Assembly: GCF_055900595.2 (NCBI RefSeq)
Contig: NZ_CM148325.1
Length of the DNA: 64,000 nt
Reading direction: 5' to 3' (one strand)
Part shown: piece after piece, positions 3,480 through 64,000 of the stretch
Layout: each line of letters opens with the position of its first letter
Position numbering within the stretch: position 1 is the stretch's first letter
Made by a program: the position numbers and the translations under genes
Notes under the pieces: generated by a model
Databases searched by the model: none
Seen by the model: the letters and a program-made list of their open reading frames with translations, nothing else
Told to the model about the DNA's origin: nothing

Positions 3480-4562
3480 TTAACGTACCTTCAGCGTTGC
3501 CAGACCAATCAGGACCAGCATCAGCGAAATAATCCAGAAACGTACAATGACGCGCGGTTCCGGCCAGCCTTTCAGTTCATAGTGGTGATGAATCGGTGCC
3601 ATGCGGAAAATACGTTGTCCGCGCAGTTTAAAGGAGCCGACCTGCAAAATAACCGACAGGGTTTCAACGACAAACACGCCGCCCATAATCACCAGCAGGA
3701 ATTCCTGACGCAGCAGTACGGCGATAATGCCCAGCGCGCCACCTAACGCCAGCGAACCTACATCGCCCATAAAGACCTGCGCCGGATAGGTGTTAAACCA
3801 CAAGAAGCCCAGCCCTGCCCCGACTATCGCGGTACAGACAATGACCAGTTCCCCGGCGTGTCGCAGATACGGTATGTGTAAATAGCTGGCAAAATTCATG
3901 TTGCCGGTTGCCCATGCCACCAGCGCAAAACCACCGGCGACGAATACAGTCGGCATAATCGCCAGGCCATCAAGACCATCGGTCAGGTTTACCGCGTTGC
4001 CGGTGCCCACAATGACGAAGTAAGCCAGCAGAATGTAGAACAGCCCCAACTGCGGCATCACATCTTTAAAGAACGGGACCACCAGCTGCGTTGCAGGCGT
4101 GTCTTTCCCGGCAAGGTACAAAGCAAAAGCAACACCCAGCGCAATAACCGACATCCAGAAATACTTCCAGCGAGCAATCAACCCCTTGGTGTCTTTACGC
4201 ACCACTTTGCGATAGTCATCAACGAAGCCAATAACACCGTAACCGACCAGCACGACCAACACGCACCAGACATACGGGTTGGACGGGTATGCCCACAGCA
4301 GCACGGAGATCACAATCGCTGTCAGGATCATAATCCCGCCCATGGTCGGCGTACCGCGCTTGCTGAAGTGTGATTCAGGACCGTCGTTACGCACCACCTG
4401 ACCAAAGGAGAGTTTTTGTAAATGAGCAATCATGCGCGGGCCCATCCACAATGAGATGAACAGCGCAGTCAGCAGGCTGACGATGGCGCGAAACGTCAGA
4501 TAGGAAAAGACGTTAAAGCCGGAATAATATTTGACCAAATGTTCGGCCAGCCAAACTAACAT
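3480..4562 (-). CDS. mraY: MraY, phospho-N-acetylmuramoyl-pentapeptide transferase
   Basis: 360 aa hydrophobic [30 protein letters not shown]...; dcw order. Confidence 0.96.
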
Positions 4563-5914
4563 GTCCCATTCTCCTGTAAAGCGCGTACTACCTCTTCCAT
4601 GGCAGCACTACGTGAACCCTTAACTAAAATTGTAATTACCTGTTGCTCAGCAATCAGTGATTTAAGACGTGTGATAAGCGCAGTTTTATCGGCAAAATGT
4701 TCACCAACGCCGCTGGCGGTACTGATAGCATGGCTTTGTTTACCCACACTTAACACGCGGTCAATACCCGCTGCCTTCGCCGCTTCGCCCACCTGTACAT
4801 GGCAGGCCTCGCTTTCAGCGCCCAGTTCCGCCATATCGCCCACCACCAGCACACGGTAGCCCGGCATTTCAGCCAGTACCTGAACAGCGGCGGTCATGGA
4901 GCCGACGTTAGCGTTGTAGGAGTCGTCGAGCAGCAACTGATTTTCCGCCAGTTGAATGGGGAACAGACGGCCAGGAACAGCTTTCAGATTTGCCAGCCCC
5001 GCTTTAATAGCATCAAGCGTTGCGCCCACGGACATGGAGAGCGCAGCGGCTGCCAGAGCATTCGCAATATTGTGACGCCCCGGCAACGGCAGCAGAACAT
5101 CGACGCTACCCGTTGGGGTTTGCAGCGTAAATTCCGTACCGTGCGAGGTCACGTGGATATTGGTGGCGGTGAAATCGCTGTTGTTAGCATTCGGTGAGAA
5201 GCGCCACACTTTGCGTGAGCCAATCACACTCTGCCAGTTCAGCCAGTCGTTGTTGTCGGCATTCATAATGGCGATACCGTTTTCCGGCAGACCGGTAAAG
5301 ATTTCGCCTTTCGCTTTCGCGACACCCGCAAGCGAGCCAAAACCTTCCAGATGCGCCGCTGCCAGGTTGTTGACCAGCGCCGCTTCCGGGCGAGTCAGAC
5401 TCACAGTCCAGGCAATTTCGCCCTGATGGTTCGCGCCAAGTTCAATTACTGCGTAATCGTACTCTGGCGTTAAGCGCAACAGCGTCATCGGTACACCGAT
5501 GTCGTTGTTGAGATTGCCTGCCGTATAAAGCGTGTTGCCACACTGGCTTAAAATCGCCGCCGTCATCTCTTTAACGGAGGTTTTGCCGGAGGAACCGGTC
5601 AGAGCAACCACGCGCGCCGGAACTTGCTGGCGAACCCATGCAGCCAGTTCACCAAACGCCAGACGCGTATCCTTGACGATTAACTGCGGCAGATCGATAT
5701 CCAGCGGACGGCTAACCAGTAGTGCACCCGCACCGCCAGCTTTCGCCTGGTCAGCAAAATCATGGGCATCGAAACGTTCGCCTTTCAGGGCAACAAACAG
5801 GCAGCCCGGCGTCAGTTTTCGCGTGTCAGTGGTTACAGCATCAAGGGTAATATCTGCACCTTGCAGTTCACCGTTGAGAATATCGGTAAGTTGGCTAAGG
5901 GTTACGCTAATCAT
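4556..5914 (-). CDS. murF: MurF, UDP-MurNAc-tripeptide--D-alanyl-D-alanine ligase
   Basis: 452 aa [20 protein letters not shown]...; P-loop TGSSGKTS; overlaps mraY start by 7 nt. Confidence 0.96.
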
Positions 5915-21713: not shown

Positions 21714-21744
21714 TTTGTAAACCGTCCGGCACTCAATCGCCAAA

Positions 21745-21973
21745 AAGAAAAAAGCCAGCAGATAATCACTGCTGGCGTGGCGATTAACACCAATACTCAG
21801 TCACACATGATGTCCGCAAATCAGTAGTCAGAATGACTCCCCTCCCACTGCATCAGCTCTTCAAGCATGGTTAATCGTTGTGGGACGCTTAACCAACGCA
21901 ACCAGCACAACGTCGCTGTCGCGGTAAAATAGTGCTGATAAAACTGACGCATGGGGCACCTCCTTGCTTCATC
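21745..21973 (-). ncRNA. sgrS: SgrS small RNA (sugar-phosphate stress)
   Basis: Minus strand reads GATGAAGCAAGGAGGTGCCCCATGCGTCAG... at the 5' end, contains the conserved seed CATGTGTGACTGAGTATTGGTG (plus-strand 21788-21809), and ends in hairpin GCCAGCAG-TGATTATC-TGCTGGC plus U-run. Divergent from sgrR. Confidence 0.88.
21821..21952 (-). CDS. sgrT: SgrT, small protein encoded within SgrS
   Basis: 43-codon ORF MRQFYQHYFTATATLCWLRWLSVPQRLTMLEELMQWEGSHSDY inside the SgrS transcript, with a GGAGG Shine-Dalgarno upstream. Confidence 0.8.
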   Translation of the reverse strand: MRQFYQHYFTATATLCWLRWLSVPQRLTMLEELMQWEGSHSDY

Positions 21974-39481: not shown

Positions 39482-39494
39482 TAGTCTCGCTAGC

Positions 39495-39585
39495 GCGATT
39501 AGGTAGGCCGGATAAGGCGTTCACGCCGCATCCGGCAATTTGTGCCGCCGGATGCGGCGTGAACGCCTTATCCGGCCTACAATTT
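39495..39585. repeat. REP/BIME: inverted pair of REP palindromes
   Basis: GGTAGGCCGGATAAGGCGTTCACGCCGCATCCGGCA ... TGCCGCCGGATGCGGCGTGAACGCCTTATCCGGCCTAC fills the whole gap between the convergent rluA and djlA. Confidence 0.85.
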
Positions 39586-39590
39586 GAAAC

Positions 39591-46547: not shown

Positions 46548-47396
46548 ATGGCGACATACCTTATTGGCGACGTTCATGGTTGTTACGATGAACTGATCGC
46601 ATTGCTGCATAAAGTAGAATTTACCCCTGGGAAAGATACCCTCTGGCTGACAGGCGATCTGGTTGCGCGCGGACCGGGTTCGCTGGATGTTCTGCGCTAT
46701 GTGAAATCCTTAGGCGACAGCGTACGTCTGGTGCTGGGCAATCACGATCTGCATCTGCTGGCGGTATTCGCCGGGATCAGCCGCAATAAACCGAAAGATC
46801 GCCTGACACCGCTGCTGGAAGCGCCGGATGCCGACGAGCTGCTTAACTGGCTGCGTCGCCAGCCTTTGCTGCAAATCGACGAAGAGAAAAAGCTGGTAAT
46901 GGCCCACGCAGGGATCACGCCGCAGTGGGATCTGCAGACCGCCAAAGAGTGCGCACGCGATGTAGAAGCGGTGCTGTCGAGTGACTCCTATCCCTTCTTT
47001 CTCGACGCTATGTACGGCGATATGCCAAATAACTGGTCACCGGAATTGCGGGGGTTGGGAAGACTGCGTTTTATCACCAACGCCTTTACCCGTATGCGTT
47101 TTTGCTTCCCGAACGGTCAACTGGATATGTACAGCAAAGAATCGCCGGAAGAAGCCCCTGCCCCACTGAAACCGTGGTTTGCGATTCCTGGCCCTGTCGC
47201 TGAAGAGTACAGCATCGCCTTTGGTCACTGGGCATCGCTGGAGGGCAAAGGTACGCCGGAAGGTATTTACGCGCTGGATACTGGCTGCTGTTGGGGCGGG
47301 ACATTAACCTGCCTGCGCTGGGAAGATAAACAGTATTTTGTCCAGCCGTCGAACCGGCATAAGGATTTGGGTGAGGGAGAGGCGGTCGCGTCTTAA
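46548..47396 (+). CDS. apaH: ApaH, diadenosine tetraphosphatase (symmetrical)
   Basis: 282 aa [46 protein letters not shown]... (metallophosphatase motifs), ending ...[10 protein letters not shown]. Stop overlaps the ccdB stop on the opposite strand. Confidence 0.95.
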
Positions 47397-47707
47397 ATCC
47401 CGTCGAGCATAAAATCTAATGCTCCTTTAATCAAAGTTCGGTGCGCGCTGGCATCGCAAAATTTCGTTCCCAGCGTGTTAACTGGAACAGTTGCAGTCTC
47501 ATGCGTCATGAGCACATATTCTTTGCCGTCTACCAGTAAAAGGATTGGGTTAAGCCGTTCTGGTGGGCGAATATGGCTAAATCGTTCAATAGGTGTTAAT
47601 GGATTAACGATACGGCGATTAATCTCACCAATAATGTCGCTGGTAACATCGATAACAAAGGGCAACGCGGCGTTCCTGCCGCGACTGCGGTATACCGTAA
47701 ATTGCAT
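47393..47707 (-). CDS. ccdB: CcdB-family toxin (gyrase poison), chromosomal homologue
   Basis: 104 aa [44 protein letters not shown]...ATVPVNTLG...DFMLDGI. Shares the MQF-VY N-terminus, FVDV-SDII block, VPV and terminal GI with F-plasmid CcdB as I recall it. Sits 2 nt downstream of a CcdA-like ORF in antitoxin-toxin order. Confidence 0.85.
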
Positions 47708-47709
47708 CG

Positions 47710-47943
47710 CTAGAAGTTCCGGTACTCATCAGAGAAACATCCGGTTTCATCAGCCAATTGATTTAACGCAGCGATAGCTTCTGCATTCTCTTCACGCCAA
47801 CGTGTTGCTGCATGTTTTTTAAGTTCAGCATTGAGCGCAACCGTAAGGGTGGCGCTCATATTTAAGCCTGCATCACGAGCGCGATTGACTAACTCACGGT
47901 CGACGGTGACGGTCACACTTTGTGTGGTACGTTTTGCAGTCAT
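47710..47943 (-). CDS. ccdA: CcdA-family antitoxin, chromosomal homologue
   Basis: 77 aa ORF MTAKRTTQSVTVTVDRELVNRARDAGLNMSATL...RWREENAEAIAALNQLADETGCFSDEYRNF. Resembles F-plasmid CcdA (TVTVD N-terminal ribbon region; RW-EN ... F-DE-R-F C-terminus). Good Shine-Dalgarno (CAGGAGCACGATATCATG). Confidence 0.85.
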   Translation of the reverse strand: MTAKRTTQSVTVTVDRELVNRARDAGLNMSATLTVALNAELKKHAATRWREENAEAIAALNQLADETGCFSDEYRNF

Positions 47944-48028
47944 GATATCGTGCTCCTGTACAATTTATACGTCTTGTATACACGGATATCTGCACGTATC
48001 AGTGATGCCGGAATTCTGATATACAAAC
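47944..48028 (-). promoter_or_regulatory. Putative ccdAB promoter/operator
   Basis: The 85-bp folA-ccdA spacer contains clustered GTATAC-like elements (TGTACA, TTATACG, TGTATACA, CGTATCA, GATATACA), resembling the short palindromic operator repeats of plasmid ccd operons. Confidence 0.5.
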
Positions 48029-50554
<2,526 letters not shown>

Positions 50555-52871: not shown

Positions 52872-54154
52872 AAAACGGTCACTCCTTTCATGCCATCCTT
52901 GATCAGATTGATGAAGCCCACTTTCTTGCCGTGGCGGAGGATTTTCTTGCGCATCAGTTCCGGCGCGCTGCCGTCAATGGTGAACAGGTCACGCGCCACA
53001 CCCACCGCCAGTTCCGGGTAGCCGCTAAACATGCGTGGGTTATCAAGGAACGCCGGTAGTTTCTGGTACATACGCATATCGCGCAGCGGGCCACTCTCAA
53101 GATGCTGACGATATTCCGCCAGTTTTTGCTTACTAAAATCGTCGCTTTTCATCGCTGAAAGCACGGTTTTTGCAGCAGCTTCCCCGGCGGCAATCGCCAG
53201 ATCCATACCGCGAATAGTAAAACCGAGGTTCATACACATTCCGGCAGCATCACCGGCAATCAACACGCCGTCACCGACCAGCTCCGGCAACATGTTGATG
53301 CCTGCTTCCGGCACTACGTGAGCGGAATATTCCACCAGCTTGCCACCCGCGATCAGCGGTGCAACGGCCGGATGCTGTTTGAAATCTTCCAGCATTTGCG
53401 GTACCGATTTTTTTGCGTCATGCAGATGATGCAGACCGCAAACCAGCCCCAGCGACAGGGTATTTTCATTGGTATAAAGGAAGCCGCCGCCCATCAGGCC
53501 ATCAGTAGGTGATCCCGCAAACAGGCAAGCCGCCCCCTGATTACCCTGCAACTGAAAACGGTCTTCGATAACCGACTTCGGTAACTCGATCAGTTCCTTC
53601 ACGCCAACCGCCACATCCGTCGGTTTGACGCGTTTTGCCATCCCCAGCTTTTCGGCAAGGATGGAATTCACCCCGTCAGCAAGGATCACCGTTTTCGCTT
53701 CAATCACATCGCCATCGGCTTCTACGCCGACAACTTTGCCATCGCGCTGTACGAGGTTATCGACACGAATCCCGGTAATTAACTGCGCGCCCGCCTCTTC
53801 GGCCTGCTCCATCAGCCAGGCATCAAATTTACTGCGCAAAACGGAGTAAGAACGCTGGGATGGCGAGGTTTCGTCGCCATTGCAGTAGTCCATAGTCATC
53901 GCTGACTTTTCCGTCATAAACGCGAGTTTTTCATGGGTGATCAGGCGTTCTACGGGGGCGGATTCGGCGAAACCAGGAATAATGTGTTCCAGACTGTGGG
54001 CATAGAGACGCCCGCCGGTGACGTTCTTGGCACCTGCGGAATTGCCACGCTCGATAACTAACACTTGCGCCCCTTCGCGGGCGAGCACCAGTGCGGCAAC
54101 CGAACCGGCAAGCCCTGCACCGACGATGATGGCGTCAAAGATATCTTCGGACAT
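52868..54154 (-). CDS. fixC: FixC, flavoprotein-quinone oxidoreductase (ETF-QO-like)
   Basis: 428 aa ORF MSEDIFDAIIVGAGLAGSVAALVLAREGAQVLVIERG... (FAD-binding GxGxxG). Confidence 0.94.
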   Translation of the reverse strand: MSEDIFDAIIVGAGLAGSVAALVLAREGAQVLVIERGNSAGAKNVTGGRLYAHSLEHIIPGFAESAPVERLITHEKLAFMTEKSAMTMDYCNGDETSPSQRSYSVLRSKFDAWLMEQAEEAGAQLITGIRVDNLVQRDGKVVGVEADGDVIEAKTVILADGVNSILAEKLGMAKRVKPTDVAVGVKELIELPKSVIEDRFQLQGNQGAACLFAGSPTDGLMGGGFLYTNENTLSLGLVCGLHHLHDAKKSVPQMLEDFKQHPAVAPLIAGGKLVEYSAHVVPEAGINMLPELVGDGVLIAGDAAGMCMNLGFTIRGMDLAIAAGEAAAKTVLSAMKSDDFSKQKLAEYRQHLESGPLRDMRMYQKLPAFLDNPRMFSGYPELAVGVARDLFTIDGSAPELMRKKILRHGKKVGFINLIKDGMKGVTVL

Positions 54155-54204
54155 AAGAGCTCCCTGTCAGCGGCAGGGCCGAAATGCAGCCCTGCCAGAG
54201 TGGA

Positions 54205-55146
54205 TCAACGCGCTAAAGCGGCGGTCAGCGCCGGAAGGATCTTCACGGCGTCACCAACAATGCCGTAATCCGCGAACTGGAAGATCGGCGCATTTTTATC
54301 TTTGTTGATGGCGAAAATAGTTTGCGACGCGTTAGCGCCAACCATGTGCTGGATCTGCCCGGAGATCCCCACCGCCAGGTACAATTCAGGTTTCAGCATC
54401 AGGTTGGAGATACCGACATAGCGTTCGTGCTCCATCCATTTTTCGTTTTCTGCCACCGGACGAGAACAGGCCAGCTCCGCACCTATCGCCTTGCAAAGCT
54501 GTTCTGCCAGCGCAATGTTCTCTTTGCTGCCAATGCCGCGGCCGACGCTGACCACCAGACGGGCTTTATCCAGATCGACGCTGTTGCTCTGGCGCGCCTG
54601 CGTTGCCGTGCGGGTAATCGCCACCGCCGGAGCCTGCCACGCCACGGTGTGTGTTTCGCCAGTACGTGACGCGTCTGGCTGAGCCGCATCAAACGTGCCG
54701 CTGCTGATGGTCAGTACCGCATACGGCGTGGCAATGCGTTCTTCGCCAATCGCCAGACCGCCGTAAACCATGTGTTTCACTGTCGCTTTACCGTCCTGCA
54801 CGCTAACTGCGCTGGCATCGTTCGAAACCGCCGCTTTAAGGCGATAACCCAGTTTTGCCGCCAGTAATTTGCCGCGACGGCTATTCGGCAACAGCACCAG
54901 ACCGTCTGCGCCGTGCTGGCGAATAGTGTCAGCCATGACACCGGCGTAATCTTCGATCATCCGATCGTCCGGTTTGCCGCTTAATGTCCAGACATGATTA
55001 GCACCAAGCTGGATTGCCAGTGCGCCGTCGGCATCATTGAGGACAAAGGTGTTGATTTGATTAGCTAAAGCCTGCGCACCGTTCATCAGTTCCGGCAGAC
55101 GAGAAGGGGTATCGCTGAATACCCAGACTTGAGAAAACGTGTTCAT
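54205..55146 (-). CDS. fixB: FixB, electron transfer flavoprotein alpha-subunit homologue
   Basis: 313 aa [40 protein letters not shown]... Confidence 0.94.
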
Positions 55147-55160
55147 AGCATCCCCTGTAA

Positions 55161-55931
55161 TTAAATGACTTTGCGAAGATTTTCAGCAAATGCGGCGATC
55201 TGTTCTTCGCCGTCACCTTCAATCACGATGCGCTGACGCTCGCGCTGTTTCGGTGCGGCAACCTGTTGTTCAGACCAGGCTTCCACGGCGTTAAAGCCAA
55301 TATCCGCCGCCGACCATACCTGGACTGGCTTTTTCGCCGCGCCGAGAATGGCTTTCATCGAAGGAATTTGTGGGGAATTGATATCAGTGGAAACAGCAAC
55401 AACCGCAGGCAGCGGAATGCTTAAGGTTTCTGTTTCATCTTCCAGTTCGCGCTCAACGGTGAGGGTATCTGCCGTCAGGGAGATAATTTTGCTGACGCCG
55501 TTAACTGCCGGAATATTGAGGATTTCGCCCACCAGCAGACCAACCTGCTGGGCATAAAGGTCGGAAGAACCATCGCCACAAAGGATCAAATCAAAGCCTG
55601 CTTTCTGGGCGGCAGCAGCCAGTGCGGTCGCCGTTTGTTGCGGCAGTGCCTGCTCGAACTGGTCATCAATCACCACAATCAGTTCATCCGGGCCGCGCGA
55701 TAGCACATCTTTACGCCCTTTGGCGTTAGTCAGGGCTTTACCGCCCACACTTAGGGCCGTCACCTGCGCCTCTGCTGCCTGTTGCTTTAGCTGGCAAGCC
55801 GCTTCAATAGCGTTGAGATCGTATTGGCTTATTTTGGCATCGGCTTTACTGAAGTCTAACGAACCATCAGCATTATTGACCGCAATATCCTGTTCATCAG
55901 GCACGCACTTATAGCAAGTAATAATCTTCAT
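55161..55931 (-). CDS. fixA: FixA, electron transfer flavoprotein beta-subunit homologue
   Basis: ORF-track frame N-extended by 21 codons; start [27 protein letters not shown] gives 256 aa. Confidence 0.94.
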
Positions 55932-57918
<1,987 letters not shown>

Positions 57919-57948
57919 TTAACCCACAAAATATCAAGAGGTTGAAAG

Positions 57949-59091
57949 ATGGATTTTAATTTAAATGATGAGCAGGAACTGTTTGTCGCCGGTATCCGCG
58001 AACTGATGGCCAGCGAAAACTGGGAGGCCTATTTTGCCGAGTGCGACCGTGACAGCGTCTACCCGGAACGTTTTGTCAAAGCACTGGCAGATATGGGTAT
58101 CGACAGCCTGCTTATCCCGGAAGAGCACGGCGGGCTGGACGCAGGTTTTGTCACCCTCGCCGCCGTGTGGATGGAATTGGGTCGTTTGGGGGCACCAACC
58201 TACGTGCTGTATCAGTTGCCGGGTGGATTCAACACCTTCCTGCGCGAAGGCACACAAGAGCAGATCGACAAGATTATGGCGTTTCGTGGTACTGGTAAGC
58301 AGATGTGGAACTCAGCGATTACCGAACCAGGGGCTGGCTCTGACGTGGGTAGCCTGAAAACGACTTATACCCGTAGAAATGGTAAGATTTATCTTAATGG
58401 TAGTAAGTGTTTTATTACCAGCAGCGCCTACACCCCGTACATCGTGGTGATGGCGCGTGACGGGGCTTCTCCGGACAAACCTGTCTACACCGAATGGTTT
58501 GTTGATATGAGCAAACCGGGCATCAAAGTGACCAAACTTGAGAAGCTCGGTCTGCGTATGGATAGCTGCTGTGAAATCACCTTTGACGATGTGGAACTGG
58601 ACGAGAAAGACATGTTCGGTCGGGAAGGTAACGGCTTTAACCGCGTCAAAGAAGAGTTCGATCATGAACGTTTCCTGGTAGCTCTCACCAACTACGGTAC
58701 GGCGATGTGCGCCTTTGAAGATGCGGCGCGCTACGCCAACCAGCGCGTACAGTTTGGCGAGGCTATTGGTCGTTTCCAGTTGATTCAGGAAAAATTCGCC
58801 CACATGGCGATCAAATTAAACTCCATGAAAAACATGCTGTATGAAGCAGCGTGGAAAGCAGACAACGGCACCATCACCTCTGGCGATGCAGCGATGTGCA
58901 AATACTTCTGCGCCAATGCGGCATTTGAAGTGGTGGATAGCGCAATGCAGGTGCTGGGCGGTGTTGGGATTGCGGGCAACCACCGCATCAGCCGCTTCTG
59001 GCGTGACCTGCGTGTAGACCGCGTTTCCGGAGGATCTGACGAAATGCAGATCCTGACGCTGGGTCGCGCGGTGCTGAAGCAATATCGCTAA
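57949..59091 (+). CDS. caiA: CaiA, crotonobetainyl-CoA reductase (acyl-CoA dehydrogenase family)
   Basis: 380 aa [53 protein letters not shown]... Confidence 0.96.
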
Positions 59092-60510: not shown

Positions 60511-62064
60511 ATGGATATCATTGGCGGACAACATCTACGTCAAATGTGGGACGATCTGGCTGACATTTACGGTCATAAAACGGCGTTGATTTGTGAATCC
60601 AGCGGCGGAGTCGTTAACCGGTACAGTTATCTTGAGTTAAATCAGGAAATTAACCGCACGGCAAACCTGTTTTATACGCTGGGGATTCGCAAAGGCGACA
60701 AGGTTGCTCTACATCTCGACAACTGCCCGGAATTTATCTTTTGCTGGTTCGGGCTGGTAAAAATTGGCGCAATTATGGTGCCGATTAACGCCCGCCTGTT
60801 GCGCGAAGAAAGCGCGTGGATCCTGCAAAATAGCCAGGCGTGCCTGCTGGTGACCAGTGCGCAGTTCTATCCCATGTATCAACAGATTCAGCAGGAAGAT
60901 GCCACGCAACTGCGGCACATTTGCCTGACAGATGTGGAGCTTCCCGCTGATGATGGCGTGAGTTCGTTTACTCAACTGAAAAATCAACAACCTGCCACCT
61001 TGTGCTATGCACCGCCGCTATCGACTGACGATACGGCGGAAATTCTCTTTACCTCCGGTACCACTTCCCGGCCGAAAGGGGTGGTGATTACCCATTACAA
61101 CCTGCGCTTCGCCGGATATTACTCCGCCTGGCAATGTGCACTGCGTGACGATGACGTCTACCTGACGGTAATGCCTGCGTTTCATATTGACTGCCAGTGT
61201 ACTGCGGCGATGGCGGCGTTTTCTGCCGGGGCCACCTTTGTGCTTGTCGAGAAATACAGCGCCCGCGCCTTCTGGGGACAGGTGCAGAAGTACCGCGCCA
61301 CCGTTACCGAATGCATTCCGATGATGATCCGTACCTTGATGGTGCAGCCGCCTTCTATGAACGATCGGCAACACCATCTGCGAGAAGTGATGTTTTATCT
61401 CAACCTGTCTGAGCAGGAAAAAGACGCATTTTGTGAACGCTTTGGCGTCCGCTTGCTGACGTCTTATGGGATGACGGAAACCATTGTTGGCATTATCGGC
61501 GATCGCCCCGGCGATAAACGACGCTGGCCGTCAATTGGCCGTGCAGGATTTTGCTACGAAGCGGAGATCCGCGACGATCACAATCGTCCGCTCCCGGCTG
61601 GTGAAATCGGTGAAATCTGCATTAAAGGCGTACCAGGGAAAACCATCTTCAAAGAATATTTTCTTAACCCGCAAGCCACTGCCAGAGTCCTGGAAGCCGA
61701 TGGCTGGCTGCACACTGGCGATACCGGATACCGCGACGAAGAGGGCTTTTTTTATTTCGTCGATCGCCGCTGCAATATGATTAAACGCGGTGGCGAGAAT
61801 GTCTCCTGCGTGGAGTTGGAAAATATTATCGCCGCGCACCCGAAAATTCAGGACATCGTGGTTGTTGGTATTAAAGATTCGATTCGCGATGAAGCCATCA
61901 AAGCGTTTGTGGTGCTGAATGAAGGTGAAACATTGAGCGAAGAGGAATTCTTCAACTTCTGCGAACAGAATATGGCGAAATTTAAAGTGCCCTCTTATCT
62001 GGAGATCAGAAAAGATCTGCCACGTAATTGCTCGGGGAAAATAATTAGAAAGAATCTGAAATAA
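60511..62064 (+). CDS. caiC: CaiC, crotonobetaine/carnitine--CoA ligase
   Basis: [33 protein letters not shown]..., 517 aa from the ATG at 60511 (ORF track offers a 522-aa version from 60496). AMP-binding motif [10 protein letters not shown]. Confidence 0.94.
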
Positions 62065-62172
62065 ATGAAACGGCAGGGAACTACCCTGCACACTAATAAT
62101 CACGTTCTAAAACAATATGCATTTTTTGCAGGGATGTTGTCGTCCCTGAAAAAGCAAAAATGGAGAAAAGGA

Positions 62173-62958
62173 ATGAGTGAATCATTACATCTGACCCGCA
62201 ATGGATCAATTCTGGAAATTACCCTTGATCGCCCAAAAGCGAATGCTATTGATGCAAAAACCAGCTTTGAAATGGGCGAAGTATTTCTAAATTTCCGTGA
62301 CGATCCGCAATTACGTGTCGCCATTATTACCGGTGCCGGAGAGAAATTCTTTTCCGCAGGCTGGGATTTAAAGGCGGCAGCAGAAGGCGAAGCACCTGAT
62401 GCTGACTTTGGCCCGGGTGGTTTTGCGGGATTAACCGAAATTTTCAATCTCGACAAACCGGTTATCGCAGCTGTGAACGGCTACGCCTTTGGCGGCGGCT
62501 TTGCACTGGCACTGGCGGCAGATTTTATTGTCTGTGCCGATAACGCCAGCTTCGCCCTGCCGGAAGCCAAACTGGGCATCGTTCCTGACAGCGGCGGTGT
62601 GCTGCGTCTGCCGAAGATCCTGCCGCCTGCTATCGTCAATGAAATGGTGATGACCGGCAGAAGAATGAGCGCAGAAGAGGCGCTGCGTTGGGGGGTAGTC
62701 AACCGCGTGGTTAGCCAGGCGGAACTGATGGATAACGCCCGCGAACTGGCGCAACAACTGGTTGACAGCGCCCCGCTGGCGATTGCGGCGCTGAAAGAGA
62801 TCTACCGCACCACCAGCGAAATGCCGGTAGAAGAAGCGTATCGCTATATTCGCAGCGGCGTGTTGAAACACTATCCATCGGTTCTGCATTCGGAAGATGC
62901 CATTGAAGGGCCGCTGGCGTTTGCCGAAAAGCGCGATCCGGTGTGGAAAGGACGTTAA
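62173..62958 (+). CDS. caiD: CaiD, carnitinyl-CoA dehydratase (crotonase family)
   Basis: ORF-track frame N-extended by 36 codons; ATG at 62173 preceded by GGAGAAAAGG gives [41 protein letters not shown]..., 261 aa. Confidence 0.94.
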
Positions 62959-62963
62959 CAACC

Positions 62964-63554
62964 GTGAGTTATTACGCCTTTGAGGGGTTAATTCCAGTGG
63001 TTCACCCGACGGCGTTTGTCCATCCCAGTGCGGTCTTGATTGGCGATGTGATTGTGGGAGCCGGTGTCTACATCGGCCCACTCGCCTCACTGCGTGGTGA
63101 CTACGGGCGGTTGATCGTGCAAGCGGGAGCCAATATTCAGGATGGTTGCATTATGCATGGCTACTGCGACACTGACACCATCGTTGGGGAAAACGGCCAT
63201 ATCGGGCACGGAGCAATCCTACATGGTTGTGTGATTGGTCGCGATGCATTGGTCGGGATGAACAGCGTGATTATGGATGGCGCGGTCATTGGCGAAGAGA
63301 GCATTGTTGCCGCCATGAGCTTTGTCAAAGCAGGCTTTAGCGGCGAGAAACGCCAGTTGTTGATGGGTACGCCTGCCCGCGCTGTACGCAGTGTTAGTGA
63401 CGACGAGTTACACTGGAAGCAGTTGAATACCAAAGAGTATCAGGATCTTGTCGGCCGCTGCCATGTAGCGTTACATGAAACGCAGCCGTTGAGACAAATG
63501 GAGGAAAATCGTCCCCGTTTGCAGGGGACGACGGATGTGGCGCCAAAGCAGTGA
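62964..63554 (+). CDS. caiE: CaiE, carnitine operon protein (hexapeptide-repeat / gamma-carbonic-anhydrase-like)
   Basis: GTG at 62964 gives [46 protein letters not shown]..., 196 aa (the ORF track starts 7 codons earlier at another GTG). Confidence 0.92.
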
Positions 63555-63559
63555 CATCG

Positions 63560-63642
63560 TCGGATGCGTCGTAAACACCTTATCCGACCTGACTGGAGAG
63601 CAACCGTAGGCCGGATAAGATGCCAGCATCGCATCCGGCAAC
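63560..63642. repeat. REP/BIME palindromic repeats between caiE and caiF
   Basis: GTCGGATGCGTCGTAAACACCTTATCCGACC ... GTAGGCCGGATAAGATGCCAGCATCGCATCCGGCA. Confidence 0.8.
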
Positions 63643-63670
63643 CAGACCGCACGGTATCAACGAAATTAAA

Positions 63671-64000
63671 TTAACGACGCATACTCTTCGACAACATCAT
63701 TTGCCACTTCTGCTCGCGGTTAAGTTCCGTGAGTGGAACGGCAGGAATACGCGGCGTCTTTCTGACACCGACGACTTTTTCCCGACTGTTATTGCGCAGG
63801 CGCGCGTAAATTTGCTCATCGATATCGACCACTTTAACCAGCCGCTGGCACTGGCATCCCCGCCCTTCCAGCTTATTAGGGATCATCTTAACTTCGCAGC
63901 TTATTTCTGTGACTTCCGACAGAATATAAGTCAGGGTATTAACCGCCTTGCTGTGTTCAATATCGAAATGAATAGAGATCTCTCTTGCTATCACCCACCG
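63671..64000 (-). CDS. caiF: CaiF, transcriptional activator of cai/fix operons; 5' end (N-terminus) runs off the window end
   Basis: ORF MIAREISIHFDIEHSKAVNTLTYILSEVTEISCEVKMIPNKLEGRGCQCQRLVKVVDIDEQIYARL...SMRR matches the C-terminal ~107 residues of the 131-aa CaiF as I recall it. Confidence 0.88.
   Translation of the reverse strand, partial: RWVIAREISIHFDIEHSKAVNTLTYILSEVTEISCEVKMIPNKLEGRGCQCQRLVKVVDIDEQIYARLRNNSREKVVGVRKTPRIPAVPLTELNREQKWQMMLSKSMRR

Follow-up and report, generated by a model that had tools for sequence, protein, structure and literature searches.

The window analysed here is a stretch of 64,000 nucleotides (contig NZ_CM148325.1 of RefSeq assembly GCF_055900595.2). Between the core genes folA and apaH it carries two small genes, ccdA and ccdB, that are predicted to form a toxin-antitoxin (TA) module (Table 1). 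Together with an 85-nt leader they fill the interval 47393-48028. The first-pass annotation of the sequence had proposed two minus-strand open reading frames (ORFs) of 77 and 104 residues, similar to CcdA and CcdB, separated by 2 nt and fitting precisely between the stops of folA and apaH. The ORF list and the raw sequence agree with this description and place the gap at 47708-47709. The antitoxin gene immediately precedes the toxin gene on a shared strand, with little space between them; this is the gene order of type II TA operons and is found in all homologous loci.

Table 1. Features of the folA-apaH interval and of its flanks, in window coordinates
Feature	Coordinates	Strand	Description
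ccdB	47393..47707	minus	Intact ORF, 104 aa; predicted CcdB-family gyrase-poison toxin
ccdA	47710..47943	minus	ORF, 77 aa; predicted CcdA-family antitoxin
ccdB codon 35 (AAT, Asn)	47603..47605	minus	Ile in all other sequences compared except one Leu
Leader, 85 nt	47944..48028	minus	Presumed promoter/operator; from folA stop to ccdA ATG
TTAA	47393-47396		Left junction of the islet; convergent apaH and ccdB stops overlapping
apaH	46548..47396	plus	Flanking core gene, 282-aa form
folA	48029..48508	minus	Flanking core gene, upstream of ccdAB on the same strand; stop at 48029-48031

The junctions of the islet were also described correctly at first pass. The apaH and ccdB stops were said to share a TTAA tetranucleotide: the apaH TAA occupies 47394-47396 and the ccdB TAA is the complement of 47393-47395, an overlap of 4 nt. 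The same overlap is annotated in every sampled Escherichia coli locus with a full-length ccdB and in Escherichia albertii. The ApaH C-terminus, GEGEAVAS, was noted as differing from that of K-12, and the K-12 protein indeed has 280 residues and ends in DLGEAAAS. The 282-residue form is also present in E. albertii and at loci that have lost ccd by replacement or deletion. In K-12, for which only a short spacer was expected, folA and apaH are separated by 77 bp containing a repetitive extragenic palindromic (REP)-like palindrome, in place of ccdAB. No Rfam family was matched inside the islet. A plus-strand ORF of 100 codons (47475..47777), antisense to ccdB and ccdA, is without support and was treated as a chance ORF.

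Sequence profiles place the two proteins in the CcdA and CcdB families, as the profile search suggested at first pass was meant to decide. CcdB matches Pfam PF01845 over 101 of 101 model positions (E=8.1e-30) and CcdA matches PF07362 over positions 2-71 of 71 (E=1.4e-26). E-values between 1e-26 and 1e-30, together with an architecture (77 aa, 2-nt gap, 104 aa) that is conserved in Escherichia, Enterobacter, Klebsiella and Salmonella, exclude the alternative of two chance ORFs in a spacer. Among solved structures, full-length alignments of the toxin were obtained with Vibrio fischeri CcdB (2kmt, E=3e-15) and with the F-plasmid CcdB (1vub, E=3.7e-9). The antitoxin aligns with F CcdA (2adl, E=7.6e-6), the C-terminal toxin-binding fragment 3g7z aligns to its residues 45-76, and there are weak matches to CopG/MazE7 ribbon-helix-helix proteins. 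CcdA is accordingly predicted to combine an N-terminal ribbon-helix-helix DNA-binding part with a C-terminal CcdB-binding part. An AlphaFold2 model of CcdB was built from 24 homologues (mean predicted local distance difference test score, pLDDT, 83.8) and compared with the PDB using Foldseek. It is predicted to form a CcdB/MazF-type SH3-like barrel with a C-terminal helix; the best 16 PDB matches are all CcdB chains, with template modelling (TM) scores of 0.71-0.78, and MazF-type toxins come next. Neither protein reaches the NCBIfam cut-offs of the F-type equivalogs NF010262/NF010264 (56.1 vs 147 bits for CcdB, 40.3 vs 100 bits for CcdA). F-type orthology was rejected on these scores, and the two proteins are best described, by sequence, as family members and not as F-type orthologues. 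The toxin may be inactive in the window allele, and non-toxicity would be compatible with its assignment to the CcdB family.

The ccdO157 islet of E. coli O157:H7 was reportedly described by Wilbaux et al. in 2007 and Mine et al. in 2009. The window module is 98.0% identical in DNA to the O157:H7 module over 551 bp and occupies the same folA-apaH locus; protein identity is 94% for CcdB and 99% for CcdA. The alignment recommended at first pass thus finds a REP spacer in K-12 and this near-identical module in O157:H7. The window module is very probably a ccdO157-type chromosomal TA islet, present at the folA-apaH site of part of the E. coli species. Of 5426 complete E. coli genomes, 2024 carry it, and K-12 does not; the module is accessory, and its first-pass description as accessory but not new holds. 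It is always a single chromosomal copy and never stands on a plasmid record of the collection. Published work describes ccdO157 as an islet between folA and apaH, in a plastic region where many strains have REP sequences and some copies are defective (PMC2654758, PMC3184786, PMC7167474). Publications of 2007-2009 already cover the islet and where it sits, the patchiness of its distribution and toxin decay, and both genes are annotated in RefSeq. In E. coli Z0117EC0005, the nearest complete genome, they are named "CcdA family antitoxin" and "CcdB family protein". The 64-kb window is collinear with this genome and 99.71% identical to it. The counterpart stretch, from murG to caiF, contains core genes only, plus the ccd pair, in line with the earlier statement that the window has no other addiction-type element.

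Were the window module derived by integration of the addiction module ccd of the F plasmid, the two would share Pfam families and gene order, and they do. Identity to the F proteins is however only 35-36% for CcdB and 31% for CcdA, both genes stay under the F-type equivalog cut-offs, and no plasmid genes flank the islet. PLSDB contains no genuine plasmid with a ccdO157-type module: identity reaches at most 47.6% among homologues from genuine plasmids and is about 35% for F-type ccdB, and the sole near-identical match is an 834-kb "plasmid" record that also bears apaH. Derivation from the F module is almost certainly wrong, and a plasmid origin was likewise rejected, PLSDB giving no genuine plasmid copy.

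Decay of the toxin gene is widespread in the species. The ccdB lesions encountered in a spread sample of genomes were a G95* nonsense mutation (in sequence type ST131), a +1 frameshift, a 13-bp deletion and a 71-bp remnant. Three of these lesions were counted by means of junction 41-mers: the nonsense mutation was found in 413 genomes, the 13-bp deletion in 259 and the frameshift in 134. A visibly dead ccdB is therefore carried by at least 806 of the 2024 carriers (at least 40%), a total that is a lower bound from a clonally biased collection. In the 11 full-length alleles sampled, ccdA is an intact 77-aa ORF in all 11, and the CcdA protein is mostly identical in the alleles with a dead ccdB. 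The ratios of nonsynonymous to synonymous divergence (dN/dS), estimated by the Nei-Gojobori method against the E. albertii copy, are 0.38-0.53 for ccdB, 0.08-0.12 for ccdA, 0.05 for folA and 0.03 for apaH. Chromosomal CcdB was previously found to evolve neutrally, and this pattern reproduces the published relaxed constraint on the chromosomal toxin (PMC3920263).

Eleven alleles were compared, the commonest sequence being that of clone D i2 and of the Nissle type. Relative to this sequence, the window CcdB carries F15L, I35N, R45H and A78T plus one synonymous change, and CcdA carries S76N plus one synonymous change. The allele of strain 2020CK-00188 is intermediate. It has H45 and T78 yet retains F15 and I35, which identifies F15L and I35N as the latest changes. 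Strain R32_14_1F pairs the window CcdB with the consensus CcdA. The I35N haplotype was counted with a 41-mer centred on the codon, which megablast finds only with an exact match across the centre; 9 of 5426 genomes have this haplotype, with dogs, humans and a goat as sources.

Of 22 other homologues, down to F CcdB at 36% identity, 21 have Ile and one has Leu at position 35, and Asn35 was seen only in the window lineage among the sequences aligned. The alignment is ungapped in this region, where the invariant residues R31, R32, P36 and L37 flank the substitution. At position 15, 21 of the 22 other sequences have an aromatic residue and one, an aberrant sequence from E. coli, has Val; homologues vary at positions 45 and 78. 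[quoted passage not shown] With a little better than an even chance, the window CcdB is destabilised or attenuated by I35N in its hydrophobic core, possibly aggravated by F15L. If so, the window copy would represent an early stage of the known ccdBO157 decay in which the ORF is intact and the antitoxin still functional.

The pair might instead be fully active, I35N and the other three substitutions being tolerated and gyrase being poisoned as by the O157:H7 allele. The ccdB ORF is intact, the residues aligned to the F active-site positions are identical in the window and O157:H7 alleles, and the allele persists in its nine genomes. Most natural full-length CcdB variants were reportedly toxic (Mine et al. 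2009). This alternative has to accommodate an Asn, a residue near the bottom of those tolerated at buried CcdB sites, where all 22 other homologues have Ile or Leu, as well as the removal by F15L of an otherwise conserved aromatic. In addition, ccdB has accumulated 4 non-synonymous changes vs 1 synonymous change in this lineage, which fits relaxed constraint. We regard full activity as a serious contender of somewhat less than even probability.

Several points weigh against the preferred reading. At the highest expression level, 79% of the F CcdB I34 substitutions are tolerated (PMC5062330). The I35N argument borrows mutational data from a protein that is 36% identical. When expressed from the operon, CcdA can act as a chaperone for destabilised CcdB mutants (bioRxiv 10.1101/2024.10.15.618527). 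The F-type equivalog cut-offs are missed by a wide margin in both genes, and particulars of F, among them the contact made by W99 and an operator with eight sites, may not transfer. A consensus scan of 47200-48700 found no sigma-70 consensus promoter in the ccdAB leader, its only hits being the folA promoter and one chance site inside ccdB.

Transcriptional read-through from folA into ccdAB is possible. The scan of the same interval found no intrinsic terminator on either strand from folA to apaH, and antisense overlap of a ccdAB transcript with the 3' end of apaH is possible as well. A Shine-Dalgarno sequence, AGGAG, lies at 47953-47957, 9 nt ahead of the ccdA ATG. The leader contains one perfect GTATAC palindrome (47976-47981) and two copies with one mismatch (47965-47970 and 48019-48024), i.e. 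three GTATAC-type hexamers where shuffled sequences average 0.53 (P=0.013). At its centre, the F operator contains one perfect and two imperfect GTATAC palindromes, and repression in F depends on the bridging of CcdA dimers by CcdB (PMC5389731). Over its last 58 nt, at the 3' end, the leader shows a single difference from E. albertii despite a synonymous divergence of about 0.12-0.15, which suggests that this part of the leader is under constraint. The perfect palindrome is itself polymorphic: it reads GTTTAC in three alleles, two of them with a frameshifted ccdB, and GCATAC in an allele that shares the window CcdB. In the 5' leader of folA, just downstream of the folA promoter, a homopolymer (48523-48530) has 8 nt vs 7 nt in the closest genome.

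By homology with the F and O157:H7 systems, ccdA and ccdB would be co-transcribed and translationally coupled. CcdB dimers would bind GyrA and trap gyrase on cleaved DNA, and the C-terminal domain of CcdA would wrap CcdB and neutralise it. Chains of CcdA and CcdB would bind the GTATAC-like hexamers of the leader, the repression of the operon being set by the toxin:antitoxin ratio, and CcdA would be the protease-labile partner. We infer gyrase poisoning, neutralisation, autoregulation and lability by analogy with these relatives.

The islet is not restricted to E. coli. A ccd islet is found at the identical locus in E. albertii, and homologues with the same architecture, 60-72% identical, stand in unrelated chromosomal surroundings: in Enterobacter the pair is a neighbour of hipBA, in Klebsiella aerogenes it is flanked by yicS and a LacI-type gene, and in Salmonella it is close to fimbrial genes. 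On Enterobacter-type contigs, a ccdAB pair whose CcdB has 71% identity is separated by about 820 bp from a hipBA-like pair (a helix-turn-helix protein and HipA), forming a small TA cluster. The ccdAB pair is a mobile two-gene islet of enterobacterial chromosomes.

The synonymous divergence of the islet (47393-47943) is 2.5 to 6 times below that of the adjacent folA and apaH, both relative to O157:H7 and relative to E. albertii. Between the window and E. albertii, synonymous differences amount to 15 of 128 sites in the islet vs 90 of 304 in the flanks (Fisher P=4.5e-5); between the window and O157:H7, they amount to 4 of 127 sites in ccdAB vs 17 of 105 in folA (Fisher P=8.6e-4). Such low values fit a spread of the islet by recombination after the lineages diverged. 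Constraint on the synonymous sites of ccdA is an alternative cause, and such constraint is reported for the F system (PMC9555053). A recombination breakpoint next to the islet was considered and rejected, the differences from the closest genome clustering at 54-58 kb and 61-63 kb and not at folA/apaH.

Other states of the folA-apaH site were observed. In E. coli fECg99.1 (locus 3604-4984) it is occupied by a DUF4291 gene and a hypothetical gene, with 59 aa of ccdA left as a remnant. In E. coli 2017-02-2CC (locus 1501-2231) a 71-bp ccdB remnant stands beside a gene annotated as 'IS1096 element passenger TnpR family'. Both loci have the 282-aa apaH.

The antitoxin could be the selected part of the islet, CcdA being kept for a toxin-independent host function such as anti-addiction (protection from incoming CcdB toxins belonging to its clade) or drug tolerance and ccdB being dispensable. 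The dN/dS of ccdA, far below that of ccdB, and the persistence of an intact CcdA beside dead ccdB, with at least 806 genomes carrying a dead toxin gene, speak in its favour. Anti-addiction was shown for the Erwinia chromosomal ccd, and a contribution of chromosomal ccdAB to drug tolerance is reported in a 2017 paper. On the other hand, F CcdB evades CcdA-O157 (PMC3920263), and it is the reverse cross-neutralisation that is reported. In other states of the locus, ccdA itself is lost or truncated. An intact ccdA beside a recently killed ccdB is expected anyway, because ccdA cannot be lost while the toxin is alive, and the low variation of ccdA may be due in part to the islet having spread recently, in view of its low synonymous divergence. 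We consider selection on the antitoxin for a host function unlikely. A more specific proposal can be drawn from the low dN/dS of ccdA, its intactness beside dead ccdB and the synonymous divergence of the islet below its flanks. CcdA would be kept by selection independent of its own toxin, with the islet still recombining through Escherichia and retained as immunity to related incoming CcdB toxins, and the window allele would be a toxin-attenuated, immunity-only form. This proposal we hold to be distinctly improbable.

As a discovery the islet carries little weight, and novelty is at the level of the allele only: a rare allele with a probable core-destabilising substitution, together with an updated census of decay. 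The added value is modest and lies in this census, in the allele and in the E. albertii locus with an islet divergence below that of the flanks. In the 5426 genomes, the toxin is visibly dead in no fewer than 40% of carriers. The rare allele, with its intact ORF and probably destabilising core substitution, offers a test case for "silent" toxin decay. Carrier strains encode a CcdA-family antitoxin, which is relevant to CcdB-based counter-selection and kill switches in wild E. coli.

Elsewhere in the window, setA is missing at 21714-21746, where the 3' end of SgrS (21747; Rfam score 228 bits) lies 33 nt from the leuD stop (21713). In K-12, setA stands between sgrS/sgrT and leuD. Of 5426 complete E. 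coli genomes, 2142 share the setA-less junction, O157:H7 included, a frequency similar to that of ccd carriage. The rluA-djlA gap (39482-39590, about 110 bp) contains a match to the REP-derived Rfam family naRNA4 on both strands at 39506-39577. The same gap in K-12 holds the yabP/yabQ pseudogenes, which makes it another variable spot. The window differs from Z0117EC0005 at 184 positions, 9 of them in the first 48 kb and most of the others in two blocks, 54000-58500 and 61000-63900. By coordinate conversion these blocks correspond to fixC to caiT and to caiC/caiD, and they look like imported recombination tracts rather than the product of point mutation.

Among known systems, the anti-addiction module ccdAB of Erwinia chrysanthemi resembles the window module in being a chromosomal ccd homologue of an enterobacterium. 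Its antitoxin neutralises F CcdB and protects from post-segregational killing, whereas CcdA-O157 does not (PMC3920263). The chromosomal CcdB of V. fischeri (2KMT, 3JSC, 4ELZ) is the best match among solved structures, by sequence (E=3e-15) as well as by fold (TM 0.77). It shares with the window CcdB the C-terminal IDF..GI pattern and an Asp at the position of F N95. It differs by an identity of about 34% in structural alignment, by its host and locus, and by a Thr instead of an Asp at the position of F W99.

The F-plasmid ccdAB (PDB 3VUB, 1X75, 2ADL) and the window module have in common their families, fold, gene order, tight spacing and GTATAC-type hexamers upstream. Residues Q2, F3, Y6, S23, I25, G103 and I104 of the window CcdB align with the identical gyrase-contact residues Q2, F3, Y6, S22, I24, G100 and I101 of F CcdB, and the C-terminal pattern R-W..EN.E...G.F.DE.R of F CcdA is found in the window CcdA. 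In contrast, F N95 is replaced by D98 and F W99 by D102, as in the O157:H7 allele; alternative gyrase contacts are reported in the CcdB family. The two modules also differ in their protein identity, in the chromosomal location of the window module and in the length of the control region (a 113-bp F operator vs an 85-nt leader). Between the F and O157 systems, CcdB-F escapes neutralisation by CcdA-O157 (PMC3920263), and a review reports the reverse direction, in which CcdA-F neutralises CcdB-O157.

The ccdO157 module of O157:H7, which is reported not to stabilise plasmids (PMC2654758), agrees with the window module in locus, orientation, the 77- and 104-aa genes, the 2-nt gap and the TTAA overlap with apaH. 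The two toxins differ at six positions: judged by the species consensus, F15L, I35N, R45H and A78T are derived in the window lineage, and G10S and E28V are derived in O157:H7. The remaining differences are S76N in the window CcdA and three base changes in the leader.

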